Below are positions 1 through 56,817 of a DNA stretch of 64,000 nucleotides, piece by piece. This stretch comes from Eledone cirrhosa (taxonomy: Eukaryota), in the NCBI GenBank assembly GCA_964016885.1, contig OZ024742.1, forward strand, positions 371,876,001-371,940,000, written 5' to 3'. Below the pieces are notes generated by a model, which was given only the letters and a program-made list of their open reading frames with translations, was not told the origin of the DNA and searched no databases. Both the position numbers and the translations under genes were made by a program. The first letter of the stretch is position 1, and each line of letters starts with the position of its first letter.

Positions 1-3000
1 AAGGTTGTGGGTTAAATTTCTAGACCAGACAGCATGGCCCATTGGTTAGTGTGTTGGACTTGACAATTACAAGTTTGTGGATTGAATTTCTAGACCAGAC
101 AGTATGGCCTATTGGTTAGTGTGTTGGACTTGACAATTACAAGGTTATGGGTTCAATTTCTAGACCAGACAGCATGGCCCATTGGTTAGTGTGTTGGACT
201 TGACAATTACAAGGTCGTGAGTTGAATTTCTAGACCAGACAGCATGGCCCATTGGTTAGTGTGTTGGACTTGACAATTACAAGGTTGTGGGTTTAATTTC
301 TAGACCAGACAGCATGGCCCATTGGTTAGTGTGTTGGACTTGACATTTACAAGGTTGTGGGTTCAATTTCTAGACCAGACAGCATGGCCCATTGGATAGT
401 GTGTTGGACTTGACAATTACAAGGTTGTGGGTTCAATTTCTAGACCAGACAGCATGGCCCATTGGTTAGTGTGTTGGACTTGACAATTACAAGGTTGTGG
501 ATTCAATTTCTAGACCAGACAGCATGGCCCATTGGTTAGTGTGTTCGACTTGACAATTACAAGGTTGTGGGTTCAATTTCTAGACCAGACAGCATGGCCC
601 ATTGGTTAGTGTGTTGGACTTGACAATTACAAGGTTGTGGATTCAATTTCTAGACCAGACAGCATGGCCCATTGGTTAGTGTGTTGGACTTGACAATTAC
701 AAGGTTGTGGGTTAAATTTCTAGACCAGACAGCATGGCCCATTGGTTAGTGTGTTGGACTTGACAATTACAAGGTTGTGGGTTCAATTTCTAGACCAGAC
801 AGCATGGCCCATTGGTTAGTGTGTTGGACTTGACAATTACAAGGTTGTGGATTCAATTTCTAGACCAGACAGCATGGCCCAGTGGTTAGTGTGTTGGACT
901 TGACAATTACAAGGTTGTGGGTTCAATTTCTAGACCAGACAGCATGGTCCATTGGTTAGTGTGTTGGACTTGACAATTGCAAGGTTGTGGGTTCAATTTC
1001 TAGACCAGACAGCATGGCCCATTGGTTAGTGTGTTCGACTTGACAATTACAAGGTTGTGGGTTCAATTTCTAGACCAGACAGCATGGCCCATTGGTTAGT
1101 ATGTTGGACTTGACAATTACAGGGTTGTGGGTTCAATTTCTAGACCAGACAGCATGGCCCATTGGTTAGTATGTTGGACTTGACAATTACAAGGTTGTGG
1201 GTTCAATTTCTAGACCAGACAGCATGGTCCATTGGTTAGTGTGTTGGACTTGACAATTACAAGGTTGTGGGTTCAATTTCTAGACCAGACAGCATGGCCC
1301 ATTGGTTAGTGTGTTCGACTTGACAATTACAAGGTTGTGGGTTCAATTTCTAGACCAGACAGCATGGCCCATTGGTTAGTATGTTGGACTTGACAATTAC
1401 AGGGTTGTGGGTTCAATTTCTAGACCAGACAGCATGGCCCATTGGTTAGTATGTTGGACTTGACAATTACAAGGTTGTGGGTTCAATTTCTAGACCAGAC
1501 AGCATGGTCCATTGGTTAGTGTGTTGGACTTGACAATTACAAGGTTGTGGGTTCAATTTCTAGACCAGACAGCATGGCCCATTGGTTAGTGTGTTCGACT
1601 TGACAATTACAAGGTTGTGGGTTCAATTTCTAGACCAGACAGCATGGCCCATTGGTTAGTATGTTGGACTTGACAATTACAGGGTTGTGGGTTCAATTTC
1701 TAGACCAGACAGCATGGCCCATTGGTTAGTATGTTGGACTTGACAATTACAAGGTTGTGGGTTCAATTTCTAGACCAGACAGCATGGTCCATTGGTTAGT
1801 GTGTTGGACTTGACAATTACAAGGTTGTGGGTTCAATTTCTAGACCAGACAGCATGGCCCATTGGTTAGTGTGTTCGACTTGACAATTACAAGGTTGTGG
1901 GTTCAATTTCTAGACCAGACAGCATGGCCCATTGGTTAGTATGTTGGACTTGACAATTACAGGGTTGTGGGTTCAATTTCTAGACCAGACAGCATGGCCC
2001 ATTGGTTAGTATGTTGGACTTGACAATTACAAGGTTGTGGGTTCAATTTCTAGACCAGACAGCATGGTCCATTGGTTAGTGTGTTGGACTTGACAATTAC
2101 AAGGTTGTGGGTTCAATTTCTAGACCAGACAGCATGGCCCATTGGTTAGTGTGTTCGACTTGACAATTACAAGGTTGTGGGTTCAATTTCTAGACCAGAC
2201 AGCATGGCCCATTGGTTAGTATGTTGGACTTGACAATTACAGGGTTGTGGGTTCAATTTCTAGACCAGACAGCATGGCCCATTGGTTAGTATGTTGGACT
2301 TGACAATTACAAGGTTGTGGGTTCAATTTCTAGACCAGACAGCATGGTCCATTGGTTAGTGTGTTGGACTTGACAATTACAAGGTTGTGGGTTCAATTTC
2401 TAGACCAGACAGCATGGCCCATTGGTTAGTGTGTTCGACTTGACAATTACAAGGTTGTGGGTTCAATTTCTAGACCAGACAGCATGGCCCATTGGTTAGT
2501 ATGTTGGACTTGACAATTACAGGGTTGTGGGTTCAATTTCTAGACCAGACAGCTTGGCCCATTGGTTAGTATGTTGGACTTGACAATTACAAGGTTGTGG
2601 GTTCAATTTCTAGACCAGACAGCATGGTCCATTGGTTAGTGTGTTGGACTTGACAATTACAAGGTTGTGGGTTCAATTTCTAGACCAGACAGCATGGCCC
2701 ATTGGTTAGTGTGTTCGACTTGACAATTACAAGGTTGTGGGTTCAATTTCTAGACCAGACAGCATGGCCCATTGGTTAGTATGTTGGACTTGACAATTAC
2801 AGGGTTGTGGGTTCAATTTCTAGACCAGACAGCATGGCCCATTGGTTAGTATGTTGGACTTGACAATTACAAGGTTGTGGGTTCAATTTCTAGACCAGAC
2901 AGCATGGTCCATTGGTTAGTGTGTTGGACTTGACAATTACAAGGTTGTGGGTTCAATTTCTAGACCAGACAGCATGGCCCATTGGTTAGTGTGTTCGACT

Positions 3001-6000
3001 TGACAATTACAAGGTTGTGGGTTCAATTTCTAGACCAGACAGCATGGTCCATTGGTTATTGTGTTGGACTTGACAATTACAAGGTTGTGGGTTCAATTTC
3101 TAAACCAGACAGCATGGCCCATTGGTTAGTGTGTTGGACTTGACAATTACAAGGTTGTGGGTTCAATTTCTAGACCAGACAGCATGGCCCATTGGTTAGT
3201 GTGTTCGACTTGACAATTACAAGGTTGTGGGTTCAATTTCTACACCAGACAGCATGGTCCATTGGTTAGTGTGTTGGACTTGACAATTACAAGGTTGTGG
3301 GTTCAATTTCTAGACCAGACAGCATGGCTCGTTGGTTAGTGTGTTGGACTTAACAATTACAAGGGTGTGGATTCTATTTCTAGACCAGACAGCATGGCCC
3401 ATTGGTTAGTGTGTTGGACTTGACAATTACAAGGTTGTGGGTTAAATTTCTAGACCAGACAGTATGGCCCATTGGTTAGTGTGTTGGACTTGACAATTAC
3501 AAGGTTGTGGGTTCAATTTCTAGACCAGACAGCATGGCCCATTGGTTAGTGTGTTGGACTTGACAATTACAAGGTTGTGGATTCAATTTCTAGACCAGAC
3601 AGTATGGCCCATTGGTTAGTGTGTTGGACTTGACAATTACAAGGTTATGGGTTCAATTTCTAGACCAGACAGCATGGCCCATTGGTTAGTGTGTTGGACT
3701 TGACAATTACAAGGTTGTGGGTTCAATTTCTAGACCAGACAGCATGGCCCATTGGTTAGTGTGTTGGACTTGACAATTACAAGGTCGTGAGTTGAATTTC
3801 TAGACCAGACAGCATGGCCCATTGGTTAGTATGTTGGACTTGACAATTACAGGGTTGTGGGTTCAATTTCTAGACCAGACAGCATGGCCCATTGGTTAGT
3901 GTGTTGGACTTGACAATTACAAGGTTGTGGGTTCAATTTCTAGACCAGACAGCATGGCCCATTGGTTAGTGTGTTCGACTTGACAATTACAAGGTTGTGG
4001 GTTCAATTTCTAGACCAGACAGCATGGCCCATTGGTTAGTGTGTTGGACTTGACAATTACAAGGTTGTGATTTCAATTTCTAGACCAGACAGTATGGCCC
4101 ATTGGTTAGTGTGTTCGACTTGACAATTACAAGGTTATGGGTTCAATTTCTAGACCAGACAGCATGTCCCATTGGTTAGTGTGTTGGACTTGACAATTAC
4201 AAGATCGTGAGTTGAATTTCTAGACCAGACAGCATGGCCCATTGGTTAGTGTGTTGGACTTGACAATTACAAGGTTGTGGGTTCAATTTCTAGACCAGAC
4301 AGTATGGCCCATTGGTTAGTGTGTTGGACTTGACAATTACAAGGTTATGGGTTCAATTTCTAGACCAGACAGCATGGCCCATTGGTTAGTGTGTTGGACT
4401 TGACAATTACAAGGTCGTGAGTTGAATTTCTAGACCAGACAGCATGGCCCATTGTTTAGTGTGTTGGACTTGACAATTACAAGGTTGTGGGTTCAATTTC
4501 TAGACCAGACAGCATGGCCCATTGGTTAGTGTGTTGGACTTGACAATTACAAGGTTGTGGGTTCAATTTCTAGACCAGACAGCATGGCCCATTGGTTAGT
4601 ATGTTGGACTTGACAATTACAAAGTTGTGGGTTCAATTTCTAGACCAGACAGCATGGTCCATTGGTTAGTGTGTTGGACTTGACAATTACAAGGTTGTGG
4701 GTTCAATTTCTAGACCAGACAGCATGGCCCATTGGTTAGTGTGTTGGACTTGACAATTACAAGGTTGTGGATTCAATTTCTAGACCAGACAGCATGGCCC
4801 ATTGGTTAGTGTGTTGGACTTGACAATTACAAGGTTGTGGGTTAAATTTCTAGACCAGACAGCATGGCCCATTGGTTAGTGTGTTGGACTTGACAATTAC
4901 AAGGTTGTGGGTTCAATTTCTAGACCAGACAGCATGGCCCATTGGTTAGTGTGTTGGACTTGACAATTACAAGGTTGTGGATTCAATTTCTAGACCAGAC
5001 AGCATGGCCCAGTGGTTAGTGTGTTGGACTTGACAATTACAAGGTTGTGGGTTCAATTTCTAGACCAGACAGCATGGCCCATTGGTTAGTGTGTTGGACT
5101 TGACAATTACAAGGTTGTGGGTTCAATTTCTAGACCAGACAGCATGGTCCATTGGTTAGTGTGTTGGACTTGACAATTACAAGGTTGTGGGTTCAATTTC
5201 TAGACCAGACAGCATGGCCCATTGGTTAGTGTGTTGGACTTGACATTTACAAGGTTGTGGGTTCAATTTCTAGACCAGACAGCATGGCCCATTGGTTAGT
5301 GTGTTGGACTTGACAATTACAAGATCGTGAGTTGAATTTCTAGACCAGACAGCATGGCCCATTGGTTAGTGTGTTGGACTTGACAATTACAAGGTTGTGG
5401 GTTCAATTTCTAGACCAGACAGTATGGCCCATTGGTTAGTGTGTTGGACTTGACAATTACAAGGTTATGGGTTCAATTTCTAGACCAGACAGCATGGCCC
5501 ATTGGTTAGTGTGTTGGACTTGACAATTACAAGGTCGTGAGTTGAATTTCTAGACCAGACAGCATGGCCCATTGATTAGTGTGTTGGACTTGACAATTAC
5601 AAGGTTGTGGGTTCAATTTCTAGACCAGACAGCATGGCCCATTGGTTAGTGTGTTGGACTTGACATTTACAAGGTTGTGGGTTCAATTTCTAGACCAGAC
5701 AGTATGGCCCATTGGTTAGTGTGTTGGACTTGACAATTACAAGGTTGTGGGTTCAATTTCTAGACCAGACAGCATGGCCCATTGGTTAGTGTGTTGGACT
5801 TGACAATTACAAGGTTGTGGGTTCAATTTCTAGACCAGACAGCATGGTCCATTGGTTAGTGTGTTGGACTTGACAATTACAAGGTTGTGGGTTCAATTTC
5901 TAGACCAGACAGCATGGCCCATTGGTTAGTGTGTTCGACTTGACAATTACAAGGTTGTGGGTTCAATTTCTAGACCAGACAGCATGGCCCATTGGTTAGT

Positions 6001-9000
6001 ATGTTGGACTTGACAATTACAGGGTTGTGGGTTCAATTTCTAGACCAGACAGCATGGCCCATTGGTTAGTATGTTGGACTTGACAATTACAAGGTTGTGG
6101 GTTCAATTTCTAGACCAGACAGCATGGTCCATTGGTTAGTGTGTTGGACTTAACAATTACAAGGTTGTGGGTTCAATTTCTAGACCAGACAGCATGGCCC
6201 ATTGGTTAGTGTGTTCGACTTGACAATTACAAGGTTGTCGGTTCAATTTCTAGACCAGACAGCATGGCCCATTGGTTAGTATGTTGGACTTGACAATTAC
6301 AGGGTTGTGGGTTCAATTTCTAGACCAGACAGCATGGCCCATTGGTTAGTATGTTGGACTTGACAATTACAAGGTTGTGGGTTCAATTTCTAGACCAGAC
6401 AGCATGGTCCATTGGTTAGTGTGTTGGACTTGACAATTACAAGGTTGTGGGTTCAATTTCTAGACCAGACAGCATGGCCCATTGGTTAGTGTGTTCGACT
6501 TGACAATTACAAGGTTGTGGGTTCAATTTCTAGACCAGACAGCATGGTCCATTGGTTATTGTGTTGGACTTGACAATTACAAGGTTGTGGGTTCAATTTC
6601 TAAACCAGACAGCATGGCCCATTGGTTAGTGTGTTGGACTTGACAATTACAAGGTTGTGGGTTCAATTTCTAGACCAGACAGCATGGCCCATTGGTTAGT
6701 GTGTTCGACTTGACAATTATAAGGTTGTGGGTTCAATTTCTACACCAGACAGCATGGTCCATTGGTTAGTGTGTTGGACTTGACAATTACAAGGTTGTGG
6801 GTTCAATTTCTAGACCAGACAGCATGGCCCATTGGTTAGTGTGTTGGACTTAACAATTACAAGGGTGTGGATTCTATTTCTAGACCAGACAGCATGGCCC
6901 ATTGGTTAGTGTGTTGGACTTGACAATTACAAGGTTGTGGGTTAAATTTCTAGACCAGACAGTATGGCCCATTGGTTAGTGTGTTGGACTTGACAATTAC
7001 AAGGTTGTGGGTTCAATTTCTAGACCAGACAGCATGGCCCATTGGTTAGTGTGTTGGACTTGACAATTACAAGGTTGTGGATTCAATTTCTAGACCAGAC
7101 AGTATGGCCCATTGGTTAGTGTGTTGGACTTGACAATTACAAGGTTATGGGTTCAATTTCTAGACCAGACAGCATGGCCCATTGGTTAGTGTGTTGGACT
7201 TGACAATTACAAGGTTGTGGGTTCAATTTCTAGACCAGGCAGCATGGCCCATTGGTTAGTGTGTTGGACTTGACAATTACAAGGTTGTGGGTTAAATTTC
7301 TAGACCAGACAGTGTGGCCCATTGGTTAGTGTGTTGGACTTGACAATTACAAGGTTGTGGGTTCAATTTCTACACCAGACAGCATGGCCCATTGGTTAGT
7401 GTGTTGGACTTGATAATTACAAGGTTGTGGATTCAATTTCTAGACCAGACAGTATGGCCCATTGGTTAGTGTGTTGGACTTGACAATTACAAGGTTATGG
7501 GTTCAATTTCTATACCAGACAGCATGGCTCATTGGTTGGTGTGTTGGACTTGACAATTACAAGGTCGTGAGTTGAATTTCTAGACCAGACAGCATGGCCC
7601 ATTGGTTAGTATGTTGGACTTGACAATTACAGGGTTGTGGGTTCAATTTCTAGACCAGACAGCATGGCCCATTGGTTAGTGTGTTGGACTTGACAATTAC
7701 AAGGTTGTGGGTTCAATTTCTAGACCAGACAGCATGGCCCATTGGTTAGTGTGTTGGACTTGACAATTACAAGGTTGTGGGTTCAATTTCTAGACCAGAC
7801 AGCATGGCCCATTGGTTAGTGTGTTGGACTTGACAATTACAAGGTTGTGATTTCAATTTCTAGACCAGACAGTATGGCCCATTGGTTAGTGTGTTCGACT
7901 TGACAATTACAAGGTTATGGGTTCAATTTCTAGACCAGACAGCATGGCCCATTGGTTAGTGTGTTGGACTTGACAATTACAAGATCGTGAGTTGAATTTC
8001 TAGACCAGACAGCATGGCCCATTGGTTAGTGTGTTGGACTTGACAATTACAAGGTTGTGGGTTCAATTTCTAGACCAGACAGTATGGCCCATTGGTTAGT
8101 GTGTTGGACTTGACAATTACAAGGTTATGGGTTCAATTTCTAGACCAGACAGCATGGCCCATTGGTTAGTGTGTTGGACTTGACAATTACAAGGTCGTGA
8201 GTTGAATTTCTAGACCAGACAGCATGGCCCATTGATTAGTGTGTTGGACTTGACAATTACAAGGTTGTGGGTTCAATTTCTAGACCAGACAGCATGGCCC
8301 ATTGGTTAGTGTGTTGGACTTGACATTTACAAGGTTGTGGGTTCAATTTCTAGACCAGACAGCATGGCCCATTGGTTAGTGTGTTGGACTTGACAATTAC
8401 AAGGTTGTGGGTTCAATTTCTAGACCAGACAGCATGGCCCATTGGTTAGTGTGTTGGACTTGACAATTACAAGGTTGTGGGTTCAATTTCTAGACCAGAC
8501 AGCATGGTCCATTGGTTAGTGTGTTGGACTTGACAATTACAAGGTTGTGGGTTCAATTTCTAGACCAGACAGCATGGCCCATTGGTTAGTGTGTTGGACT
8601 TGACAATTGCAAGGTTGTGGGTTCAATTTCTAGACCAGACAGCATGGCCCATTGGTTAGTGTGTTGGACTTAACAATTACAAGGTTGTGGGTTCAATTTC
8701 TAGACCAGACAGCATGGCCCATTGGTTAGTGTGTTGGACTTGACAATTACAAGGTTGTGGGTTCAATTTCTAGACCAGACAGCATGGCCCATTGGTTAGT
8801 GTGTTCGACTTGACAATTACAAGGTTGTGGGTTCAATTTCTAGACCAGACAGCATGGTCCATTGGTTAGTGTGTTGGACTTGACAATTACAAGGTTGTGG
8901 GTTCAATTTCTAGACCAGACAGCATGGCCCGTTGGTTAGTGTGTTGGACTTAACAATTACAAGGTTGTGGGTTCAATTTCTAGACCAGACAGCATGGCCC

Positions 9001-12000
9001 ATTGGTTAGTGTGTTGGACTTGACAATTACAAGGTTGTGGGTTAAATTTCTAGACCAGACAGTATGGCCCATTGGTTAGTGTGTTGGACTTGACAATTAC
9101 AAGGTTGTGGGTTCAATTTCTAGACCAGACAGCATGGCCCATTGGTTAGTGTGTTGGACTTGACAATTACAAGTTTGTGGATTCAATTTCTAGACCAGAC
9201 AGTATGGCCTATTGGTTAGTGTGTTGGACTTGACAATTACAAGGTTATGGGTTCAATTTCTAGACCAGACAGCATGGCCCATTGGTTAGTGTGTTGGACT
9301 TGACAATTACAAGGTCGTGAGTTGAATTTCTAGACCAGACAGCATGGCCCATTGGTTAGTGTGTTGGACTTGACAATTACAAGGTTGTGGGTTTAATTTC
9401 TAGACCAGACAGCATGGCCCATTGGTTAGTGTGTTGGACTTGACATTTACAAGGTTGTGGGTTCAATTTCTAGACCAGACAGCATGGCCCATTGGTTAGT
9501 GTGTTGGACTTGACAATTACAAGGTTGTGGGTTCAATTTCTAGACCAGACAGCATGGCCCATTGGTTAGTGTGTTGGACTTGACAATTACAAGGTTGTGG
9601 ATTCAATTTCTAGACCAGACAGCATGGCCCATTGGTTAGTGTGTTCGACTTGACAATTACAAGGTTGTGGGTTCAATTTCTAGACCAGACAGCATGGCCC
9701 ATTGGTTAGTGTGTTGGACTTGACAATTACAAGGTTGTGGATTCAATTTCTAGACCAGACAGCATGGCCCATTGGTTAGTGTGTTGGACTTGACAATTAC
9801 AAGGTTGTGGGTTAAATTTCTAGACCAGACAGCATGGCCCATTGGTTAGTGTGTTGGACTTGACAATTACAAGGTTGTGGGTTCAATTTCTAGACCAGAC
9901 AGCATGGCCCATTGGTTAGTGTGTTGGACTTGACAATTACAAGGTTGTGGATTCAATTTCTAGACCAGACAGCATGGCCCAGTGGTTAGTGTGTTGGACT
10001 TGACAATTACAAGGTTGTGGGTTCAATTTCTAGACCAGACAGCATGGCCCATTGGTTAGTGTGTTGGACTTGACAATTACAAGGTTGTGGGTTCAATTTC
10101 TAGACCAGACAGCATGGTCCATTGGTTAGTGTGTTGGACTTGACAATTACAAGGTTGTGGGTTCAATTTCTAGACCAGACAGCATGGTCCATTGGTTAGT
10201 GTGTTGGACTTAACAATTACAAGGTTGTGGGTTCAATTTCTAGACCAGACAGCATGGCCCATTGGTTAGTGTGTTCGACTTGACAATTACAAGGTTGTCG
10301 GTTCAATTTCTAGACCAGACAGCATGGCCCATTGGTTAGTATGTTGGACTTGACAATTACAGGGTTGTGGGTTCAATTTCTAGACCAGACAGCATGGCCC
10401 ATTGGTTAGTATGTTGGACTTGACAATTACAAGGTTGTGGGTTCAATTTCTAGACCAGACAGCATGGTCCATTGGTTAGTGTGTTGGACTTGACAATTAC
10501 AAGGTTGTGGGTTCAATTTCTAGACCAGACAGCATGGCCCATTGGTTAGTGTGTTCGACTTGACAATTACAAGGTTGTGGGTTCAATTTCTAGACCAGAC
10601 AGCATGGTCCATTGGTTATTGTGTTGGACTTGACAATTACAAGGTTGTGGGTTCAATTTCTAAACCAGACAGCATGGCCCATTGGTTAGTGTGTTGGACT
10701 TGACAATTACAAGGTTGTGGGTTCAATTTCTAGACCAGACAGCATGGCCCATTGGTTAGTGTGTTCGACTTGACAATTATAAGGTTGTGGGTTCAATTTC
10801 TACACCAGACAGCATGGTCCATTGGTTAGTGTGTTGGACTTGACAATTACAAGGTTGTGGGTTCAATTTCTAGACCAGACAGCATGGCCCATTGGTTAGT
10901 GTGTTGGACTTAACAATTACAAGGGTGTGGATTCTATTTCTAGACCAGACAGCATGGCCCATTGGTTAGTGTGTTGGACTTGACAATTACAAGGTTGTGG
11001 GTTAAATTTCTAGACCAGACAGTATGGCCCATTGGTTAGTGTGTTGGACTTGACAATTACAAGGTTGTGGGTTCAATTTCTAGACCAGACAGCATGGCCC
11101 ATTGGTTAGTGTGTTGGACTTGACAATTACAAGGTTGTGGATTCAATTTCTAGACCAGACAGTATGGCCCATTGGTTAGTGTGTTGGACTTGACAATTAC
11201 AAGGTTATGGGTTCAATTTCTAGACCAGACAGCATGGCCCATTGGTTAGTGTGTTGGACTTGACAATTACAAGGTTGTGGGTTCAATTTCTAGACCAGAC
11301 AGCATGGCCCATTGGTTAGTGTGTTGGACTTGACAATTACAAGGTTGTGGGTTAAATTTCTAGACCAGACAGTGTGGCCCATTGGTTAGTGTGTTGGACT
11401 TGACAATTACAAGGTTGTGGGTTCAATTTCTACACCAGACAGCATGGCCCATTGGTTAGTGTGTTGGACTTGATAATTACAAGGTTGTGGATTCAATTTC
11501 TAGACCAGACAGTATGGCCCATTGGTTAGTGTGTTGGACTTGACAATTACAAGGTTATGGGTTCAATTTCTATACCAGACAGCATGGCTCATTGGTTGGT
11601 GTGTTGGACTTGACAATTACAAGGTCGTGAGTTGAATTTCTAGACCAGACAGCATGGCCCATTGGTTAGTATGTTGGACTTGACAATTACAGGGTTGTGG
11701 GTTCAATTTCTAGACCAGACAGCATGGCCCATTGGTTAGTGTGTTGGACTTGACAATTACAAGGTTGTGGGTTCAATTTCTAGACCAGACAGCATGGCCC
11801 ATTGGTTAGTGTGTTCGACTTGACAATTACAAGGTTGTGGGTTCAATTTCTAGACCAGACAGCATGGCCCATTGGTTAGTGTGTTGGACTTGACAATTAC
11901 AAGGTTGTGATTTCAATTTCTAGACCAGACAGTATGGCCCATTGGTTAGTGTGTTCGACTTGACAATTACAAGGTTATGGGTTCAATTTCTAGACCAGAC

Positions 12001-18000: not shown

Positions 18001-21000
18001 GTTCAATTTCTAGACCAGACAGCATGGCCCATTGGTTAGTGTGTTCGACTTGACAATTACAAGGTTGTGGGTTCAATTTCTAGACCAGACAGCATGGTCC
18101 ATTGGTTAGTGTGTTGGACTTGACAATTACAAGGTTGTGGGTTCAATTTCTAGACCAGACAGCATGGCCCATTGGTTAGTGTGTTGGACTTAACAATTAC
18201 AAGGTTGTGGGTTCAATTTCTAGACCAGACAGCATGGCCCATTAGTTAGTGTGTTGGACTTGACAATTACAAGGTTGTGGGTTAAATTTCTAGACCAGAC
18301 AGTATGGCCCATTGGTTAGTGTGTTGGACTTGACAATTACAAGGTTGTGGGTTCAATTTCTAGACCAGACAGCATGGCCCATTGGTTAGTGTGTTGGACT
18401 TGACGATTACAAGTTTGTGGATTCAATTTCTAGACCAGACAGTATGGCCTATTGGTTAGTGTGTTGGACTTGACAATTACAAGGTTATAGGTTCAATTTC
18501 TAGACCAGACAGCATGGCCCATTGGTTAGTGTGTTGGACTTGACAATTACAAGGTTGTGAGTTGAATTTCTAGACCAGACAGCATGGCCCATTGGTTAGT
18601 GTGTTTGGACTTGACAATTACAAGGTTGTGGGTTTAATTTCTAGACCAGACAGCATGGCCCATTGGTTAGTGTGTTGGACTTGACATTTACAAGGTTGTG
18701 GGTTCAATTTCTAGACCAGACAGCATGGCCCATTGGTTAGTGTGTTGGACTTGACAATTACAAGGTTGTGGGTTCAATTTCTAGACCAGACAGCATGGCC
18801 CATTGGTTAGTGTGTTGGACTTGACAATTACAAGGTTGTGGATTCAATTTCTAGACCAGACAGCATGGCCCATTGGTTAGTGTGTTCGACTTGACAATTA
18901 CAAGGTTGTGGGTTCAATTTCTAGACCAGACAGCATGGCCCATTGGTTAGTGTGTTGGACTTGACAATTACAAGGTTGTGGATTCAATTTCTAGACCAGA
19001 CAGCATGGCCCATTGGTTAGTGTGTTGGACTTGACAATTACAAGGTTGTGGGTTAAATTTCTAGACCAGACAGCATGGCCCATTGGTTAGTGTGTTGGAC
19101 TTGACAATTACAAGGTTGTGGGTTCAATTTCTAGACCAGACAGCATGGCCCATTGGTTAGTGTGTTGGACTTGACAATTACAAGGTTGTGGATTCAATTT
19201 CTAGACCAGACAGCATGGCCCATTGGTTAGTGTGTTGGACTTGACAATTACAAGGTTGTGGGTTCAATTTCTAGACCAGACAGCATGGTCCATTGGTTAG
19301 TGTGTTGGACTTGACAATTACAAGGTTGTGGGTTCAATTTCTAGACCAGACAGCATGGCCCATTGGTTAGTGTGTTGGACTTGACATTTACAAGGTTGTG
19401 GGTTCAATTTCTAGACCAGACAGTATGGCCCATTGGTTAGTGTGTTGGACTTGACAATTGCAAGGTTGTGGGTTCAATTTCTAGACCAGACAGCATGGCC
19501 CATTGGTTAGTGTGTTGGACTTGACAATTACAAGGTTGTGGGTTCAATTTCTAGACCAGACATCATGGTCCATTGGTTAGTGTGTTGGACTTGACAATTA
19601 CAAGGTTGTGGGTTCAATTTCTAGACCAGACAGCATGGCCCATTGGTTAGTGTGTTGGACTTGACAATTGCAAGGTTGTGGGTTCAATTTCTAGACCAGA
19701 CAGCATGGCCCATTGGTTAGTGTGTTGGACTTAACAGTTACAAGGTTGTGGGTTCAATTTCTAGACCAGACAGCATGGCCCATTGGTTAGTGTGTTGGAC
19801 TTGACAATTACAAGGTTGTGGGTTAAATTTCTAGACCAGACCGTATGGCCCATTGGTTAGTGTGTTGGACTTGACAATTACAAGGTTGTGGGTTCAATTT
19901 CTAGACCAGACAGCATGGCCCATTGGTTAGTGTGTTGGACTTGACAATTACAAGGTTGTGGATTCAATTTCTAGACCAGACAGTATGGCCCATTGGTTAG
20001 TGTGTTGGACTTGACAATTACAAGGTTATGGGTTCAATTTCTAGACCAGACAGCATGGCCCATTGGTTAGTGTGTTGGACTTGACAATTACAAGGTCGTG
20101 AGGTGAATTTCTAGACCAGACAGCATGGCCCATTGGTTAGTGTGTTGGACTTGACAATTACAAGGTTGTGGATTCAATTTCTAGACCAGACAGCATGGCC
20201 CAGTTGTTAGTGTGTTGGACTTGACAATTACAAGGTTGTGGGTTCAATTTCTAGACCAGACAGCATGGCCCATTGGTTAGTGTGTTGGACTTGACAATTA
20301 CAAGGTTGTGGGTTCAATTTCTAGACCAGACAGCATGGCCCATTGGTTAGTGTGTTCGACTTGACAATTACAAGGTTGTGGGTTCAATTTCTAGACCAGA
20401 CAGCATGGTCCATTGGTTAGTGTGTTGGACTTGACAATTACAAGGTTGTGGGTTCAATTTCTAGACCAGACAGCATGGTCCATTGGTTAGTGTGTTGGAC
20501 TTGACAATTACAAGGTCGTGAGTTGAATTTCTAGACCAGACAGCATGGCCCATTGGTTAGTGTGTTGGACTTGACAATTACAGGGTTGTGGGTTCAATTT
20601 CTAGACCAGACAGCATGGCCCATTGGTTAGTGTGTTGGACTTGACAATTACAAGGTTGTGGGTTCAATTTCTAGACCAGACAGCATGGCCCATTGGTTAG
20701 TGTGTTCGACTTGACAATTACAAGGTTGTGGGTTCAATTTCTAGACCAGACAGCATGGCCCATTGGTTAGTGTGTTCGACTTGACAATTACAAGGTTGTG
20801 GGTTCAATTTCTAGACCAGACAGCATGGTCCATTGGTTAGTGTGTTGGACTTGACAATTACAAGGTTGTGGGTTCAATTTCTAGACCAGACAGCATGGCC
20901 CATTGGTTAGTGTGTTGGACTTAACAATTACAAGGTTGTGGGTTCAATTTCTAGACCAGACAGCATGGCCCATTGGTTAGTGTGTTGGACTTGACAATTA

Positions 21001-27000: not shown

Positions 27001-30000
27001 TGTGTTGGACTTGACAATTACAAGGTTGTGATTTCAATTTCTAGACCAGACAGTATGGCCCATTGGTTAGTGTGTTCGACTTGACAATTACAAGGTTGTG
27101 GGTTCAATTTCTAGACCAGACAGCATGGTCCATTGGTTAGTGTGTTGGACTTGACAATTACAAGGTTGTGGGTTCAATTTCTAGACCAGACAGCATGGCC
27201 CATTGGTTAGTGTGTTGGACTTAACAATTACAAGGTTGTGGGTTCAATTTCTAGACCAGACAGCATGGCCCATTAGTTAGTGTGTTGGACTTGACAATTA
27301 CAAGGTTGTGGGTTAAATTTCTAGACCAGACAGTATGGCCCATTGGTTAGTGTGTTGGACTTGACAATTACAAGGTTGTGGGTTCAATTTCTAGACCAGA
27401 CAGCATGGCCCATTGGTTAGTGTGTTGGACTTGACGATTACAAGTTTGTGGATTCAATTTCTAGACCAGACAGTATGGCCTATTGGTTAGTGTGTTGGAC
27501 TTGACAATTACAAGGTTATGGGTTCAATTTCTAGACCAGACAGCATGGCCCATTGGTTAGTGTGTTGGACTTGACAATTACAGGGTTGTGGGTTCAATTT
27601 CTAGACCAGACAGCATGGCCCATTGGTTAGTGTGTTGGACTTGACAATTACAAGGTTGTGGGTTCAATTTCTAGACCAGACAGCATGGCCCATTGGTTAG
27701 TGTGTTCGACTTGACAATTACAAGGTTGTGGGTTCAATTTCTAGACCAGACAGCATGGTCCATTGGTTAGTGTGTTGGACTTGACAATTACAAGGTTGTG
27801 GGTTCAATTTCTAGACCAGACAGCATGGTCCATTGGTTAGTGTGTTGGACTTGACAATTACAAGGTCGTGAGTTGAATTTCTAGACCAGACAGCATGGCC
27901 CATTGGTTAGTGTGTTGGACTTGACAATTACAGGGTTGTGGGTTCAATTTCTAGACCAGACAGCATGGCCCATTGGTTAGTGTGTTGGACTTGACAATTA
28001 CAAGGTTGTGGGTTCAATTTCTAGACCAGACAGCATGGCCCATTGGTTAGTGTGTTCGACTTGACAATTACAAGGTTGTGGGTTCAATTTCTAGACCAGA
28101 CAGCATGGCCCATTGGTTAGTGTGTTCGACTTGACAATTACAAGGTTGTGGGTTCAATTTCTAGACCAGACAGCATGGTCCATTGGTTAGTGTGTTGGAC
28201 TTGACAATTACAAGGTTGTGGGTTCAATTTCTAGACCAGACAGCATGGCCCATTGGTTAGTGTGTTGGACTTAACAATTACAAGGTTGTGGGTTCAATTT
28301 CTAGACCAGACAGCATGGCCCATTAATTAGTGTGTTGGACTTGACAATTACAAGGTTGTGGGTTAAATTTCTACACCAGACAGTATGGCCCATTGGTTAG
28401 TGTGTTGGACTTGACAATTACAAGGTTGTGGGTTCAATTTCTAGACCAGACAGCATGGCCCATTGGTTAGTGTGTTGGACTTGACAATTACAAGTTTGTG
28501 GATTCAATTTCTAGACCAGACAGTATGGCCTATTGGTTAGTGTGTTGGACTTGACAATTACAAGGTTATGGGTTCAATTTCTAGACCAGACAGCATGGCC
28601 CATTGGTTAGTGTGTTGGACTTGACAATTACAAGGTCGTGAGTTGAATTTCTAGACCAGACAGCATGGCCCATTGGTTAGTGTGTTGGACTTGACAATTA
28701 CAAGGTTGTGGGTTTAATTTCTAGACCAGACAGCATGGCCCATTGGTTAGTGTGTTGGACTTGACATTTACAAGGTTGTGAGTTCAATTTCTAGACCAGA
28801 CAGCATGGCCCATTGGTTAGTGTGTTGGACTTGACAATTACAAGGTTGTGGGTTCAATTTCTAGACCAGACAGCTTGGCCCATTGGTTAGTGTGTTGGAC
28901 TTGACAATTACAAGGTTGTGGATTCAATTTCTAGACCAGACAGCAGGGCCCATTGGTTAGTGTGTTCGACTTGACAATTACAAGGTTGTGGGTTCAATTT
29001 CTAGACCAGACAGCATGGCCCATTGGTTAGTGTGTTGGACTTGACAATTACAAGGTTGTGGATTCAATTTCTAGACCAGACAGCATGGCCCATTGGTTAG
29101 TGTGTTGGACTTGACAATTACAAGGTTGTGGGTTAAATTTCTAGACCAGACAGCATGGCCCATTGGTTAGTGTGTTGGACTTGACAATTACAAGGTTGTG
29201 GGTTCAATTTCTATACCAGACAGCATGGCCCATTGGTTAGTGTGTTGGACTTGACAATTACAAGGTTGTGGATTCAATTTCTAGACCAGACAGCATGGCC
29301 CAGTGGTTAGTGTGTTGGACTTGACAATTGCAAGGTTGTGGGTTCAATTTCTAGACCAGACAGCATGGCCCATTGGTTAGTGTGTTGGACTTAACAGTTA
29401 CAAGGTTGTGGGTTCAATTTCTAGACCAGACAGCATGGCCCATTGGTTAGTGTGTTGGACTTGACAATTACAAGGTTGTGGGTTCAATTTCTAGACCAGA
29501 CAGTATGGCCCATTGGTTAGTGTGTTGGACTTGACAATTACAAGGTTGTGGGTTCAATTTCTAGACCAGACAGCATGGCCCATTGGTTAGTGTGTTGGAC
29601 TTGACAATTACAAGGTTGTGGATTCAATTTCTAGACCAGACAGTATGGCCCATTGGTTAGTGTGTTGGACTTGACAATTACAAGGTTATGGGTTCAATTT
29701 CTAGACCAGACAGCATGGCCCATTGGTTAGTGTGTTGGACTTGACAATTACAAGGTCGTGAGTTGAATTTCTAGACCAGACAGCATGGCCCATTGGTTAG
29801 TGTGTTGGACTTGCCAATTACAGGGTTGTGGGTTCAATTTCTAGACCAGACAGCATGGCCCATTGGTTAGTGTGTTGGACTTGACAATTACAAGGTTGTG
29901 GGTTCAATTTCTAGACCAGACAGCATGGCCCATTGGTTAGTGTGTTCGACTTGACAATTACAAGGTTGTGGGTTCAATTTCTAGACCAGACAGCATGGTC

Positions 30001-33000
30001 CATTGGTTAGTGTGTTGGACTTGACAATTACAAGGTTGTGGGTTCAATTTCTAGACCAGACAGCATGGCCCATTGGTTAGTGTGTTGGACTTAACAATTA
30101 CAAGGGTGTGGGTTCTATTTCTAGACCAGACAGCATGGCCCATTGGTTAGTGTGTTGGACTTGACAATTACAAGGTTGTGGGTTAAATTTCTAGACCAGA
30201 CAGTATGGCCCATTGGTTAGTGTGTTGGACTTGACAATTACAAGGTTGTGGGTTCAATTTCTAGACCAGACAACATGGTCCATTGGTTAGTGTGTTGGAC
30301 TTGACAATTACAAGGTTGTGGGTTCAATTTCTAGACCAGACAGCATGGCCCATTGGTTAGTGTGTTGGACTTAACAATTACAAGGGTGTGGATTCTATTT
30401 CTAGACCAGACAGCATGGCCCATTGGTTAGTGTGTTGGACTTGACAATTACAAGGTTGTGTGTTAAATTTCTAGACCAGACAGTATGGCCCATTGGTTAG
30501 TGTGTTGGACTTGACAATTACAAGGTTGTGGATTCAATTTCTAGACCAGACAGCATGGCCCATTGGTTAGTGTGTTGGACTTGACAATTACAAGGTTGTG
30601 GATTCAATTTCTAGACCAGACAGTATGGCCCATTGGTTAGTGTGTTGGACTTGACAATTACAAGGTTGTGGGTTAAATTTCTAGACCAGACAGCATGGCC
30701 CATTGGTTAGTGTGTTGGACTTGATAATTACAAGGTTGTGGATTCAATTTCTAGACCAGACAGTATGGCCCATTGGTTAGTGTGTTGGACTTGACAATTA
30801 CAAGGTTGTGGGTTCAATTTCTAGACCAGACAGCATGGTCCATTGGTTAGTGTGTTGGACTTGACAATTACAAGGTTGTGGGTTCAATTTCTAGACCAGA
30901 CAGCATGGCCCATTGGTTAGTGTGTTGGACTTGACATTTACAAGGTTGTGGGTTCAATTTCTAGACCAGACAGTATGGCCCATTGGTTAGTGTGTTGGAC
31001 TTGACAATTGCAAGGTTGTGGGTTCAATTTCTAGACCAGACAGCATGGCCCATTGGTTAGTGTGTTGGACTTGACAATTACAAGGTTGTGGGTTCAATTT
31101 CTAGACCAGACAGCATGGTCCATTGGTTAGTGTGTTGGACTTGACAATTACAAGGTTGTGGGTTCAATTTCTAGACCAGACAGCATGGCCCATTGGTTAG
31201 TGTGTTGGACTTGACAATTGCAAGGTTGTGGGTTCAATTTCTAGACCAGACAGCATGGCCCATTGGTTAGTGTGTTGGACTTAACAATTACAAGGTTGTG
31301 GGTTCAATTTCTAGACCAGACAGCATGGCCCATTGGTTAGTGTGTTGGACTTGACAATTACAAGGTTGTGGGTTAAATTTCTAGACTAGACAGTATGGCC
31401 CATTGGTTAGTGTGTTGGACTTGACAATTACAAGGTTGTGGGTTCAATTTCTAGACCAGACAGCATGGCCCATTGGTTAGTGTGTTGGACTTGACAATTA
31501 CAAGGTTGTGGATTCAATTTCTAGACCAGACAGTATGGCCCATTGGTTAGTGTGTTGGACTTGACAATTACAAGGTTATGGGTTCAATTTCTAGACCAGA
31601 CAGCATGGCCCATTGGTTAGTGTGTTGGACTTGACAATTACAAGGTCGTGAGTTGAATTTCTAGACCAGACAGCATGGCCCATTGGTTAGTGTGTTGGAC
31701 TTGACAATTACAGGGTTGTGGGTTCAATTTCTAGACCAGACAGCATGGCCCATTGGTTAGTGTGTTGGACTTGACAATTACAAGGTTGTGGATTCAATTT
31801 CTAGACCAGACAGTATGGCCCATTGGTTAGTGTGTTGGACTTGACAATTACAAGGTTATGGGTTCAATTTCTAGACCAGACAGCATGGCCCATTGGTTAG
31901 TGTGTTGGACCTGACAATTACAAGGTTGTGGGTTCAATTTCTAGACCAGACAGCATGGCCCATTGGTTAGTGTGTTCGACTTGACAATTACAAGGTTGTG
32001 GGTTCAATTTCTAGACCAGACAGCATGGTCCATTGGTTAGTGTGTTGGACTTGACAATTACAAGGTTGTGGGTTCAATTTCTAGACCAGACAGCATGGCC
32101 CATTGGTTAGTGTGTTGGACTTAACAATTACAAGGTTGTGGGTTCAATTTCTAGACCAGACAGCATGGCCCATTAATTAGTGTGTTGGACTTGACAATTA
32201 CAAGGTTGTGGGTTAAATTTCTAGACCAGACAGTATGGCCCATTGGTTAGTGTGTTGGACTTGACAATTACAAGGTTGTGGGTTCAATTTCTAAACCAGA
32301 CAGCATGGCCCATTGGTTAGTGTGTTGGACTTGACAATTACAAGTTTGTGGATTCAATTTCTAGACCAGACAGTATGGCCTATTGGTTAGTGTGTTGGAC
32401 TTGACAATTACAAGGTTATGGGTTCAATTTCTAGACCAGACAGCATGGCCCATTGGTTAGTGTGTTGGACTTGACAATTACAAGGTCGTGAGTTGAATTT
32501 CTAGACCAGACAGCATGGCCCATTGGTTAGTGTGTTGGACTTGACAATTACAAGGTTGTGGGTTTAATTTCTAGACCAGACAGCATGGCCCATTGGTTAG
32601 TGTGTTGGACTTGACATTTACAAGGTTGTGGGTTCAATTTCTAGACCAGACAGCATGGCCCATTGGTTAGTGTGTTGGACTTGACAATTACAAGGTTGTG
32701 GGTTCAATTTCTAGACCAGACAGCATGGCCCATTGGTTAGTGTGTTGGACTTGACAATTACAAGGTTGTGGATTCAATTTCTAGACCAGACAGTATGGCC
32801 CATTGGTTAGTGTGTTGGACTTGACAATTACAAGGTTATGGGTTCAATTTCTAGACCAGACAGCATGGCCCATTGGTTAGTGTGTTGGACTTGACAATTA
32901 CAAGGTCGTGAGTTGAATTTCTAGACCAGACAGCATGGCCCATTGGTTAGTGTGTTGGACTTGCCAATTACAGGGTTGTGGGTTCAATTTCTAGACCAGA

Positions 33001-36000
33001 CAGCATGGCCCATTGGTTAGTGTGTTGGACTTGACAATTACAAGGTTGTGGGTTCAATTTCTAGACCAGACAGCATGGCCCATTGGTTAGTGTGTTCGAC
33101 TTGACAATTACAAGGTTGTGGGTTCAATTTCTAGACCAGACAGCATGGTCCATTGGTTAGTGTGTTGGACTTGACAATTACAAGGTTGTGGGTTCAATTT
33201 CTAGACCAGACAGCATGGCCCATTGGTTAGTGTGTTGGACTTAACAATTACAAGGGTGTGGGTTCTATTTCTAGACCAGACAGCATGGCCCATTGGTTAG
33301 TGTGTTGGACTTGACAATTACAAGGTTGTGGGTTAAATTTCTAGACCAGACAGTATGGCCCATTGGTTAGTGTGTTGGACTTGACAATTACAAGGTTGTG
33401 GGTTCAATTTCTAGACCAGACAACATGGTCCATTGGTTAGTGTGTTGGACTTGACAATTACAAGGTTGTGGGTTCAATTTCTAGACCAGACAGCATGGCC
33501 CATTGGTTAGTGTGTTGGACTTAACAATTACAAGGGTGTGGATTCTATTTCTAGACCAGACAGCATGGCCCATTGGTTAGTGTGTTGGACTTGACAATTA
33601 CAAGGTTGTGTGTTAAATTTCTAGACCAGACAGTATGGCCCATTGGTTAGTGTGTTGGACTTGACAATTACAAGGTTGTGGATTCAATTTCTAGACCAGA
33701 CAGCATGGCCCATTGGTTAGTGTGTTGGACTTGACAATTACAAGGTTGTGGATTCAATTTCTAGACCAGACAGTATGGCCCATTGGTTAGTGTGTTGGAC
33801 TTGACAATTACAAGGTTGTGGGTTAAATTTCTAGACCAGACAGCATGGCCCATTGGTTAGTGTGTTGGACTTGATAATTACAAGGTTGTGGATTCAATTT
33901 CTAGACCAGACAGTATGGCCCATTGGTTAGTGTGTTGGACTTGACAATTACAAGGTTGTGGATTCAATTTCTAGACCAGACAGCATGGCCCATTGGTTAG
34001 TGTGTTGGACTTGACAATTACAAGGTTGTGGGTTAAATTTCTAGACCAGCCAGTATGGCCCATTGGTTAGTGTGTTGGACTTGACAATTACAAGGTTGTG
34101 GGTTCAATTTCTAGACCAGACAGCATGGCCCATTGGTTAGTGTGTTGGACTTGATAATTACAAGGTTGTGGATTCAATTTCTAGACCAGACAGTATGGCC
34201 CATTGGTTAGTGTGTTGGACTTGACAATTACAAGGTTATGGGTTCAATTTCTAGAGCAGACAGCATGGCTCATTGGTTGGTGTGTTGGACTTGACAATTA
34301 CAAGGTCGTGAGTTGAATTTCTAGACCAGACAGCATGGCCCATTGGTTAGTATGTTGGACTTGACAATTACAGGGTTGTGGGTTTAATTTCTAGACCAGA
34401 CAGCATGGCCCATTGGTTAGTGTGTTGGACTTGACAATTACAAGGTTGTGGGTTCAATTTCTAGACCAGACAGCATGGTCCATTGGTTAGTGTGTTGGAC
34501 TTGACAATTACAAGGTTGTGGGTTCAATTTCTAGACCAGACAGCATGGCCCATTGGTTAGTGTGTTGGACTTAACAATTACAAGGTTGTGGGTTCAATTT
34601 CTAGACCAGACAGCATGGCCCATTGGTTAGTGTGTTGGACTTGACAATTACAAGGTTGTGGGTTAAATTTCTAGACCAGACAGTATGGCCCATTGGTTAG
34701 TGTGTTGGACTTGACAATTACAAGGTCGTGAGTTGAATTTCTAGACCAGACAGCATGGCCCATTGGTTAGTGTGTTGGACTTGACATTTACAAGGTTGTG
34801 GGTTCAATTTCTAGACCAGACAGCATGGCCCATTGGTTAGTGTGTTGGACTTGACAATTACAAGGTTGTGGGTTCAATTTCTAGACCAGACAGCATGGCC
34901 CATTGGTTAGTGTGTTGGACTTGACAATTACAAGGTTGTGGATTCAATTTCTAGACCAGACAGCATGGCCCATTGGTTAGTGTGTTCGACTTGACAATTA
35001 CAAGGTTGTGGGTTCAATTTCTAGACCAGACAGCATGGCCCATTGGTTAGTGTGTTGGACTTGACAATTACAAGGTTGTGGATTCAATTTCTAGACCAGA
35101 CAGCATGGCCCATTGGTTAGTGTGTTGGACTTGACAATTACAAGGTTGTGGGTTAAATTTCTAGACCAGACAGCATGGCCCATTGGTTAGTGTGTTGGAC
35201 TTGACAATTACAGGGTTGTGGGTTCAATTTCTAGACCAGACAGCATGGCCCATTGGTTAGTGTGTTGGACTTGACAATTACAAGGTTGTGGATTCAATTT
35301 CTAGACCAGACAGCATGGCCCATATGTTAGTGTGTTGGACTTGACAATTACAAGGTTGTGGGTTCAATTTCTAGACCAGACAGCATGGCCCATTGGTTAG
35401 TGTGTTGGACTTGACAATTACAAGGTTGTGGGTTCAATTTCTAGACCAGACAGCATGGTCCATTGGTTAGTGTGTTGGACTTGACAATTACAAGGTTGTG
35501 GGTTCAATTTCTAGACCAGACAGCATGGCCCATTGGTTAGTGTGTTGGACTTGACATTTACAAGGTTGTGGGTTCAATTTCTAGACCAGACAGTATGGCC
35601 CATTGGTTAGTGTGTTGGACTTGACAATTGCAAGGTTGTGGGTTCAATTTCTAGACCAGACAGCATGGCCTATTGGTTAGTGTGTTGGACTTGACAATTA
35701 CAAGGTTGTGGGTTCAATTTCTAGACCAGACAGCATGGTCCATTGGTTAGTGTGTTGGACTTGACAATTACAAGGTTGTGGGTTCAATTTCTAGACCAGA
35801 CAGCATGGCCCATTGGTTAGTGTGTTGGACTTGACAATTGCAAGGTTGTGGGTTCAATTTCTAGACCAGACAGCATGGCCCATTGGTTAGTGTGTTGGAC
35901 TTAACAATTACAAGGTTGTGGGTTCAATTTCTAGACCAGACAGCATGGCCCATTGGTTAGTGTGTTGGACTTGACAATTACAAGGTTGTGGGTTAAATTT

Positions 36001-37269
36001 CTAGACCAGACAGTATGGCCCATTGGTTAGTGTGTTGGACTTGACAATTACAAGGTTGTGGGTTCAATTTCTAGACCAGACAGCATGGCCCATTGGTTAG
36101 TGTGTTGGACTTGACAATTACAAGGTTGTGGATTCAATTTCTAGACCAGACTGTATGGCCCATTGGTTAGTGTGTTGGACTTGACAATTACAAGGTTATG
36201 GGTTCAATTTCTAGACCAGACAGCATGGCCCATTGGTTAGTGTGTTGGACTTGACAATTACAAGGTCGTGAGTTGAATTTCTAGACCAGACAGCATGGCC
36301 CATTGGTTAGTGTGTTGGACTTGACAATTACAGGGTTGTGGGTTCAATTTCTAGACCAGACAGCATGGCCCATTGGTTAGTGTGTTGGACTTGACAATTA
36401 CAAGGTTGTGGATTCAATTTCTAGACCAGACAGTATGGCCCATTGGTTAGTGTGTTGGACTTGACAATTACAAGGTTATGGGTTCAATTTCTAGACCAGA
36501 CAGCATGGCCCATTGGTTAGTGTGTTGGACCTGACAATTACAAGGTTGTGGGTTCAATTTCTAGACCAGACAGCAAGGCCCATTGGTTAGTGTGTTGGAC
36601 TTGACAATTACAAGGTTGTGGGTTCTATTTCTAGACCAGACAGCATTGTCCATTGGTTAGTGTGTTGGACTTGACAATTACAAGGTTGTGGGTTCAATTT
36701 CTAGACCAGACAGTATGGCCCATTGGTTAGTGTGTTGGACTTGACAATTACAAGGGTGTGGGTTCAATTTCTAGACCAGACAGCAAGGCCCATTGGTTAG
36801 TGTGTTGGACTTGACAATTACAAGGTTGTGGGTTCTATTTCTAGACCAGACAGTATGGCCCATTGGTTAGTGTGTTGGACTTGACAATTACAAGGTTGTG
36901 GGTTCAATTTCTAGACCAGACAGCAAGGCCCATTGGTTAGTGTGTTGGACTTGACAATTACAAGGTTGTGGGTTCTATTTCTAGACCAGACAGTATGGCC
37001 CAGTGGTTAGTGTGTTGGACTTGACAATTACAAGGTCGTGGGTTCAATTTCTAGACCAGACAGTATGGCCCATTGGTTAGTGTGTTGGACTTGACAATTA
37101 CAAGGTTGTGGGTTCAATTTCTAGACCAGACAGTATGGCCCATTGGTTAGTGTGTTGGACTTGACAATTACAAGGTTGTGGGTTCAATTTCTAGACCAGA
37201 CAGCATGGCCCATTGGTTAGTGTGTTGGACTTGACAATTGCAAGGTTGTGTGTTCAATTTCTAGACCAG
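1..37269 (+). repeat. 70-bp tandem satellite (~530 copies, continues past window start) made of a tRNA-derived SINE head
   Basis: Unit AGCATGGCCCATTGGTTAGTGTGTTGGACTTGACAATTACAAGGTTGTGGGTTCAATTTCTAGACCAGAC, with scattered substitutions and only one indel seen (~18604). Contains A-box-like TGGCCCATTGG and B-box-like GGTTCAATTTC. Homologous to SINE heads at 52631 and 56818. Confidence 0.97.
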
Positions 37270-37828
37270 GCAACATGTTGTGTTCTTGAGCAAAATACTT
37301 CATTTCATTTTTGATAAGACTGGGATCTGTTATGATTAAAACACCCAACAAACCTCTTATGAGACCAGCTAAATCTGCATTATTTTGGTGCTGACTTGGT
37401 CTGTGATGACTTGTCTAACCCAGTACATGCTGTAAAGTAGTTGGTGATAGGAAGAGCACCCAACCTTAGAAAGCTCACCAAACAAAAAGTCAGGATGACC
37501 CTTCAGTCCTGACATGACAGCCTCCCCAGTGTTGGTAATATACACTATAAATTCACCCAGTACATGCTGTAAAGTGATTGGTGATGGCAAGGGCATCCAG
37601 CTATAGACAGCTTTGCAAAACAAAGTGTTGGGAGGACCCTTTAGTTGTGTCAAAGACATTACAATCTCTCCGGAGCACTCAGTAGAACATGAGACCATAC
37701 ATAAGCAATTTTCAGATCCCTGACCTGTCAGGGAGATCAATGGCCTCGTTTCACTACTGATTTGGTCCACATAGACCTGTCTAATGTTTGCTAGGAAAAG
37801 TGGACGTTAAAACGACGATGATGATGAT
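37200..37828 (+). mobile_element. Degraded tRNA-derived SINE (family A) whose head is the last satellite unit
   Basis: The last unit continues into ATGTTGTGTTCTTGAGCAAAATACTTCATTTCA, matching GTGTTGTTTCCTTGAGCAAGACACTTTATTTCA in the SINE at 52631. Further on are AAGGGCATCCAGCT and the tail GGAAAAGTGGACGTTAAAACGACGATGATGATGAT. Confidence 0.7.
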
Positions 37829-38844: not shown

Positions 38845-39334
38845 CATCATCATCATTTCATTTTACGTCCGCTTTTTCCCTGCTTGCAAGGGTGAGATGG
38901 GAACTGATTCTGGCTTGATTTCTACAGCTGGATACCCTTCCTAACACCAACCTCATTTACAGTGAGTGCTGGGTGCTTTTTTGCCGTGGCACCTCCATGT
39001 CCACTTTACAGTGTGGGCTGGGTGCTTTTTTGCTGTGACACCGCCACGACCACTTTACAGTGAGTGCTGGGTACTTTTTTTCCGTGGCACCTCCACATCC
39101 ACTTTGCAATGTGGGCTGGGTGCTTTTTTGCCGGGGAACCTCCACGACCACTTTGCAATGGAATGATAGGGACCCCAGTCTCTATCATCTCATTTCTACA
39201 GCTGAGTAAACTGGAGTATTGTGAAATAAAGTGTCTTGCTCAAGGAAACAACACATCACCCGGTCCGAAAATTGAACTCACAACCCTTTCAATTGCAAGG
39301 CCAATGCTCTAACCACTGAGCCATGGGCCTCCAT
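38845..39334 (-). mobile_element. Full-length family-A SINE with (ATG)n tail and expanded internal repeat
   Basis: The reverse complement aligns end to end with the SINE at 52631-52967: head ATGGAGGC.CATGGCTCAGTGGTTAGAGCATTGG, B-box GAGTTCAATTTTC, tail AAGCGGACGTAAAATGAAATGATGATG. Confidence 0.9.
38956..39160. repeat. ~49-bp internal SINE minisatellite, ~4 copies
   Basis: Repeats of CCACTTTACAGTGWGKGCTGGGTGCTTTTTTGCCGTGGCACCTCCACGA. The SINE at 52631 has about one copy. Confidence 0.85.
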
Positions 39335-51680: not shown

Positions 51681-51681
51681 C

Positions 51682-54351: not shown

Positions 54352-54441
54352 TATTCAAAGTAATCCAACTTATTTTACAAATGGGATAAACAGTTATATT
54401 CTGGACGCAGTCCCGCGCTCCTTGCTTTATTATAGTTTAGA

Positions 54442-56752: not shown

Positions 56753-56817
56753 CTCGTGTAATATAACTAACTTTCTCATTATTTGTCTGGTATTTAGAAC
56801 ATGATTTAACCCAGTGA

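Follow-up and report, generated by a model that had tools for sequence, protein, structure and literature searches.

A 70-bp satellite array probably derived from the decayed head of a CORE-type SINE and likely inert as a Pol III promoter

Tandem arrays cover 81% of the window, by which we mean the whole 64-kb stretch of Eledone cirrhosa DNA that was analysed. Its left part is taken up by an array of 70-bp units, and copies of the related short interspersed element (SINE) as well as further arrays lie to the right of it:

1..37271, + strand: 70-bp satellite array of about 532 units, running off the left edge of the window; each unit is a decayed tRNA-like SINE head with an A-box at unit positions 5-15 and a B-box at 50-60
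37202..37271, + strand: last full unit, with variants A39G and G50T and an end that departs from the consensus
37272..37307, + strand: terminal extension into the SINE body, ~36 bp, beginning with microhomology to the SINE 5' end and aligned by BLASTN to 52711-52742 and 39253-39222
37308..37312, + strand: first T5 on this strand, where SINE homology breaks off
37418..37645, + strand: two patches, 78% alike (37418-37507 and 37555-37645), with partial similarity to later SINE parts
38851..39334, - strand: dispersed parent-SINE copy that contains a 49-bp tandem (38956-39154; 4.1 copies)
39308..41560, - strand: 26-bp array from the first 26 bp of the parent SINE; 86 copies, 82 strict A-boxes, no B-box
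45574..50208, - strand: 45-bp array of 103 copies, an in-frame amplification of 15 codons within a broken Helitron Rep/helicase ORF
52631..52965, + strand: the least broken of the dispersed parent-SINE copies, comprising a tRNA-like head (52642-52699), a strict B-box (52687) and a CORE-type stretch (52745-52769)
56812..56884, + strand: third, older SINE head, 47/63 identical to the array unit

An earlier note on this DNA had described a tandem array of at least 37 kb with some 530 units of 70 bp, and this description stands: TRF calls a period of 70 over positions 1-37277, with 532.5 copies and 95% matches. Mean pairwise identity between units is 96.2%, with ~92 distinct unit variants and a mean of 1.5 differences from the consensus. 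As the same note expected, an XbaI site (TCTAGA) recurs about once per unit; the array holds 520 of them, spaced by exactly 70 bp in 505 cases, by 140 bp in 13 and by 71 bp in one. The single 71-bp spacing reflects a 1-bp insertion near 18581, the sole indel of the array, and the unit bearing it was left out before counting, so that the unit counts given below use 531 of the 532 units. Motif counts across the array were 418 for TGGCCCATTGGTTAG, 8 for CAGTGGTTAG and 357 for GGTTCAATTTC.

The unit variants follow one another in a strongly non-random order. When the array is compared with itself at different lags, up to 18 successive units are identical, whereas 100 shuffles of unit order gave maxima of 3-5, and blocks of units repeat at lags of 4, 45 and 58 (runs of 15, 14 and 12 at lag 58, and of 17 at lag 45), which is the pattern that would be expected of unequal crossing-over or block slippage. 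Array alleles match the state of the dispersed copies in 12 of 65 cases versus 6.7 expected, a figure without correction for transition bias. A protein-coding reading of the array was rejected, the longest stop-free stretch in six frames being 59 aa, and doubled TTAGGG is absent from the 64-kb window.

Judged by alignment, the array unit is a homologue of the dispersed SINE heads, in accordance with the earlier claim that the units form the head of one SINE. The consensus unit shares 49/65, 52/65 and 47/63 positions with the three dispersed heads in the window, and the last unit together with its tail aligns over ~104 bp, at 76-78% identity, with the copies at 52640-52742 (+) and 39325-39222 (-). 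The tRNA covariance models that had been proposed as a check gave a divided answer: the dispersed head at 52642-52699 matches positions 8-63 of the Rfam tRNA model RF00005 (27.8 bits against a gathering score of 29, E 4e-4), while three array units, one of them with a restored A-box, produced no Rfam tRNA match up to E 10 when a similarly sized stretch was scanned. The folds of three array units were no better than those of shuffles (z -0.79, -0.46 and +0.03), Rfam scans of 36800-39600 and 36920-37130 returned only chance-level snoRNA and miRNA matches, and ARAGORN found 0 tRNA genes in the window. By the tRNA models, the array units lack the cloverleaf with acceptor stem that would characterize a tandem array of tRNA genes.

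Behind the tRNA-like head of the least broken copy, bases 52745-52769 agree with a published BivaCORE-SINE2 primer at 24 of 25 positions (0 matches in 100 shuffles), a comparison that involves this one 25-nt primer out of a central CORE domain of ~60 bp. The 3' part of the BivaCORE-SINE2 CORE domain is described, in the available text of the source, as resembling those of mammals, coelacanth and octopus (PMC4824008). Taken together, the tRNA-model match, the primer match and this likeness make the parent element likely a CORE-SINE.

The claim that the last unit runs into a SINE body holds in that an extension is present, but it covers only ~36 bp (37272-37307). The first T5 on the + strand does lie at 37308-37312, just as reported earlier, and a count confirmed that no T4 occurs within the array. 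We compared this region with public sequencing runs, covering X1, X4, X6 and X7 of the 9 listed, in whose reads the dispersed SINE family is abundant. The listing for this sequence contained no RNA run, which has no bearing on expression. Beyond 37307/37308, 1,846 X7 reads and 77 X1 contigs matching the extension continue with different, SINE-body sequence, and for that reason the T5 marks the end of a broken copy, not the terminator of the SINE itself. Later SINE portions are matched again by the patches at 37418-37472 and 37554-37607. Upstream of 37276, reads of the dispersed family, loose ends from X4 and X7 among them, show a canonical GGTTCGATTCC B-box, which indicates that the dispersed family has a good promoter and that the founder of the array was a decayed copy. 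Further into the flank, a 50-bp piece (37993-38042) is single here and tandem elsewhere in the genome, with X7 reads going back 47-50 bp and a depth of 237,080 in X1 versus 119 in X4.

The promoter boxes of the array were scored unit by unit, with TRGnnnARnGG as the A-box pattern. The consensus A-box occurs in 8/531 units, the A-box purine having been lost in nearly all. Neither the strict B-box GTTCRANNC nor the looser GWTCRANNC is found in any unit (0/531 for both), the strict form is absent from both strands of the array, and the C61-equivalent position is T in 531/531 units, a defect that the earlier note had already raised as a caveat. The B-box core from G53 to A58 is kept in 359/531 units and carries a further change in the other 172. 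All 8 units with a consensus A-box also retain G53-A58, and all 8 still have T61. At the same time, 357 units (those with GGTTCAATTTC) are one mismatch away from an 11-bp B-box at normal A-B spacing. The unit boundaries leave both boxes whole, and the gap between them measures 34 nt, which agrees with the tRNA spacing noted before and falls within the reported A-B range of 31-93 bp (PMC11724288). Published work gives the B-box motif as GTTCRANNC with C56G as a null (PMC5391098), while the template-strand G61 is a DMS-protected contact of tauB, the equivalent base being bound by R366/K370 of WH4 (PMC11724288).

Of all G and C positions in the unit, G53 and C56 vary most, with changes in 78 and 90 units. 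G52, G53 and C56 (unit positions 50, 51 and 54) are among the most variable positions overall, C56 having three alleles in 42, 37 and 11 units, and the share of units with an intact B-core, 0.76 at 1-5 kb, is down to 0.52 at 30-35 kb. In base-matched permutations the variant load of the B-core was 171 versus 52 expected (P 0.010 by units, 0.015 by haplotypes), and by allele number it was 7 versus 4.3 (P 0.10); these P values are uncorrected, stem from 12 tests and concern non-independent units, so that the excess is a lead only. The variants give no sign of purifying selection on the boxes. Absence of T4 was likewise considered as a sign of selection and rejected, since T4 is lacking on the + strand in 64% of shuffled units and on both strands in 55%. 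The earlier note had pointed out the missing T4 on the + strand; the - strand of the 70-bp array lacks it too, and the 26-bp and 45-bp arrays are T4-free on both strands.

The neighbouring repeats show what else has been amplified in this region. The 26-bp array, which holds the A-box without a B-box, runs into an otherwise whole SINE (at 39334) and faces the 70-bp array 2 kb off. Two shorter tandems, of 49 bp (4 copies, 38956-39154) and 48 bp (8 copies, 56334-56733), come from the same region of the SINE body in two separate copies. The 45-bp array, flanked by the Pfam domains Helitron_like_N and Pif1_2B, serves as a control for promoter-free amplification; it gives stop-free frames of 1563 and 1662 aa, and its units are organized near 49280-50208 into a 258-bp higher-order repeat that includes a variant with 33 bp deleted. 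Since A-box-only, SINE-body and Helitron pieces were all amplified nearby, amplification here needs no promoter. A 33-bp array (57036-64000, 214 copies, 85% matches) runs off the right edge of the window and has stops in all six frames, and is therefore not one long coding exon. Among the remaining features are a fragment of a Tc1-like DDE transposase (53165-53734, -; best match 81% identical), a LINE-like fragment with a PHD finger by Pfam and a reverse-transcriptase-like part recognized by eye (51553-52320, -), and pieces of a second SINE family at 42080-42260 and 54270-55640, some inverted, with strict B-boxes at 42181, 55103 and 55223. This second family may be of the Nin/Deu-domain type.

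We consider it probable that the array is a satellite that arose from the decayed head of a CORE-type SINE, likely through a local 70-bp duplication followed by unequal recombination, and that it is likely inert as a Pol III promoter. About 10 bases are common to the stretch beyond the T-arm of the last unit and the 5' ends of the dispersed SINEs, and the two sequences are combined at the unit junction. These bases are a candidate microhomology: the first duplication could have joined the 5' end of the SINE to bases immediately behind its T-arm, 70 bp away. Growth then proceeded by duplication of multi-unit blocks, presumably through unequal crossing-over or replication slippage. The loss of C61 in all units and of the A-box purine in nearly all would have abolished high-affinity TFIIIC binding, going by the yeast TFIIIC structure. 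The array appears to sit in a repeat-amplifying, probably heterochromatic region in which any short piece may amplify.

The earlier note had proposed a dense TFIIIC/Pol III platform or a source of multimeric RNA, ideas that the sequence does not support: there is no strict B-box, the core is not conserved, the lack of T4 is at chance level and promoter-free pieces were amplified nearby. TFIIIC/Pol III function of the array is unlikely on this evidence, while weak multivalent binding of TFIIIC would still be compatible with the boxes as they stand. In one such reading, which we regard as distinctly unlikely, hundreds to thousands of one-mismatch B-boxes at 70-bp spacing might together form a boundary at a block of heterochromatin or a multivalent sink for TFIIIC. 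In a variant of this reading, promoter strength itself might be under selection, such that only heads without C61 could amplify and hits to G53 and C56 are still spreading, a variant that leans on the 171 versus 52 excess (P about 0.01, uncorrected). Either of the two would turn the array into a natural case of satellite DNA titrating a Pol III factor.

A landing platform for TFIIIC of the same SINE-head origin, working as an insulator or chromatin organiser like extra TFIIIC (ETC) sites, is improbable as well. The 357 one-mismatch B-boxes and the 34-nt spacing speak for it, as does the fact that TFIIIC binds mainly via the B-box and that ETC sites exist without Pol III (PMC11724288, PMC5391098), but every unit has lost C61, no strict B-box lies on either strand, the variability of the unit is greatest among its G and C positions at G53 and C56, and, judged by contig depth, the array is not amplified in the relative X4. 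Were TFIIIC to bind despite the loss of C61, many weak B-boxes could sum to a chromatin-organising site, and the copy number of a satellite could titrate Pol III factors. We give very little credence to the idea, drawn by analogy with amphibian tRNA-derived repeats, that Pol III, starting from a few better units, or Pol II reading through the array produces long multimeric RNA or small RNAs that would play a part in heterochromatin. Here the 8 units with both a consensus A-box and G53-A58, 37 kb without T4 and the in vitro transcription of the newt PolIII/TAN repeat (PMC10702118) stand against the T61 of those same 8 units, a T4 lack no greater than chance, and three units that neither fold better than shuffles nor match tRNA.

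The public runs also bear on the extent of the array and its distribution. The head-to-tail joint at which sequence 'goes back 70' was found in contigs of X1, X4 (1 contig) and X6 (2 contigs), that is, in three studies. In X1, which may be the sample of the assembly itself, the unit reaches a summed depth of 26,786, compared with 7.3 for a flank contig carrying a single difference. Such depths do not equal copy numbers, but this one points to thousands of unit copies. The joint contigs of X4 and X6 have depths of 5.7-7.6, the X4 unit contig 7.55, and the 19 X6 records mostly lie below 70. The X6 records and the X4 unit contig may represent traces of DNA from organism A or else a short tandem of ancestral origin, and they provide no evidence of conservation. 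X4 carries another organism label and belongs to a relative rich in the parent SINE: the depth of the SINE body is 110,425 in X4 versus 162,723 in X1, whereas that of the unit is 9 versus 37,044, a comparison in which a satellite less than 88% alike would be missed. Since X4 is rich in the SINE and yet has the unit only at trace depth, amplification of the array looks lineage-restricted. X7 consists of raw RAD reads from another sample under the species label of X1, with a unit depth of ~130 and 0 reads across a 70-bp joint; its reads start at CATG and stop at AATT, and as both sites lie inside the unit, such a library would likely cut the array apart. It is hardly credible that assembly error created the array or most of its length: none of the listed contigs reaches from the units across the array end into unique flank, the length is taken from the assembly and raw X7 reads lack the joint (as such cutting would predict), but the joint recurs in contigs of three studies, the X1 depth far exceeds that of unique flank, and a collapsed or looped assembly would not look like ~92 unit variants arranged in ordered blocks.

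As a satellite derived from a SINE head, the array can be set beside several known systems (for background, see also PMC4758252 and PMC4233971). Like ETC sites and tRNA-gene insulators, it holds B-box-like sequence without a tRNA product; unlike ETC sites, which are defined by TFIIIC occupancy at B-boxes, it has GTTCRANNC in 0/531 units. The closest match to the functional idea of the earlier note is found in the tRNA-related tandem repeats of amphibians, namely PolIII/TAN of newt, OAX/satellite 1 of Xenopus, Rana/polIII and Hy/polIII (PMC10702118, PMC12054243, PMC9659126). Compared by their descriptions, these are likewise tandem and contain a tRNA-like region, but they have units of ~200-360 nt or more, in vitro transcription is reported for PolIII/TAN and the available texts give their parent SINEs as unconfirmed, whereas the array has a 70-bp unit, a parent SINE in the same window and a defective B-box. 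The CORE-SINE superfamily includes MIR, AFC, BivaCORE-SINE2 and octopus OR1 (PMC4824008); the parent element resembles its members in having a tRNA-like head followed by the stretch that matches the BivaCORE-SINE2 primer at 24/25, while the array keeps only the head.

Among molluscs, the tandem SINEs described in bivalves are whole elements in 2-15 copies (PMC11481361). In the repeat annotation of O. vulgaris, SINEs make up 11.6% of the genome and 80 satellite families 3.12%; its available text makes no mention of the origin of satellite families, and two motifs of the window are absent from the supplement of that paper (PMC13282606). Going by title and start of abstract, none of the matches listed in our literature search reports a cephalopod SINE-derived satellite or a TFIIIC-bound satellite, though supplements and subscription papers may hold one.

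The system that the array fits is that of the SINE-derived satellites (sSats) of squamate reptiles, described from 56 genomes with units of ~70-290 nt that come from part of a SINE (PMC10702118). As far as the available text goes, membership there calls for at least four middle monomers head-to-tail, a longer terminal unit being typical and minor variants lacking it; sSat1-3 include a 67-nt snake unit with a box B and loci of up to 320, about 950 and over 1200 monomers, the monomers of the 320-mer locus are 94% similar, subvariants alternate, the longer terminal unit extends into the SINE and the position is typically subtelomeric or heterochromatic (PMC10702118). All four sSat features examined in the sequence are found in the array: 532.5 head-to-tail copies against a minimum of four middle monomers; a unit shorter than the dispersed SINE and homologous to part of it; a longer terminal unit (~36 bp), here not unbroken to the SINE end, the 5' end of the array lying beyond the window; and high homogeneity (96.2%) with subvariant blocks of 4, 45 and 58 units. 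The array differs in that its 70-bp unit is the head alone with both boxes, sSat3Ppi2, from the tRNA portion, being exceedingly rare in long loci according to the same source (PMC10702118), and in that its parent is a CORE-type SINE in an invertebrate host and its extension stops after ~36 bp. By its sequence, then, the array adds another SINE-derived satellite to a kind already described in squamates and extends this kind beyond them, a point left open in the available text of PMC10702118 and of modest interest to repeat specialists. It is a clean case of how a SINE head can give rise to a satellite, one window containing the parent, the extension behind the last unit and a candidate microhomology.
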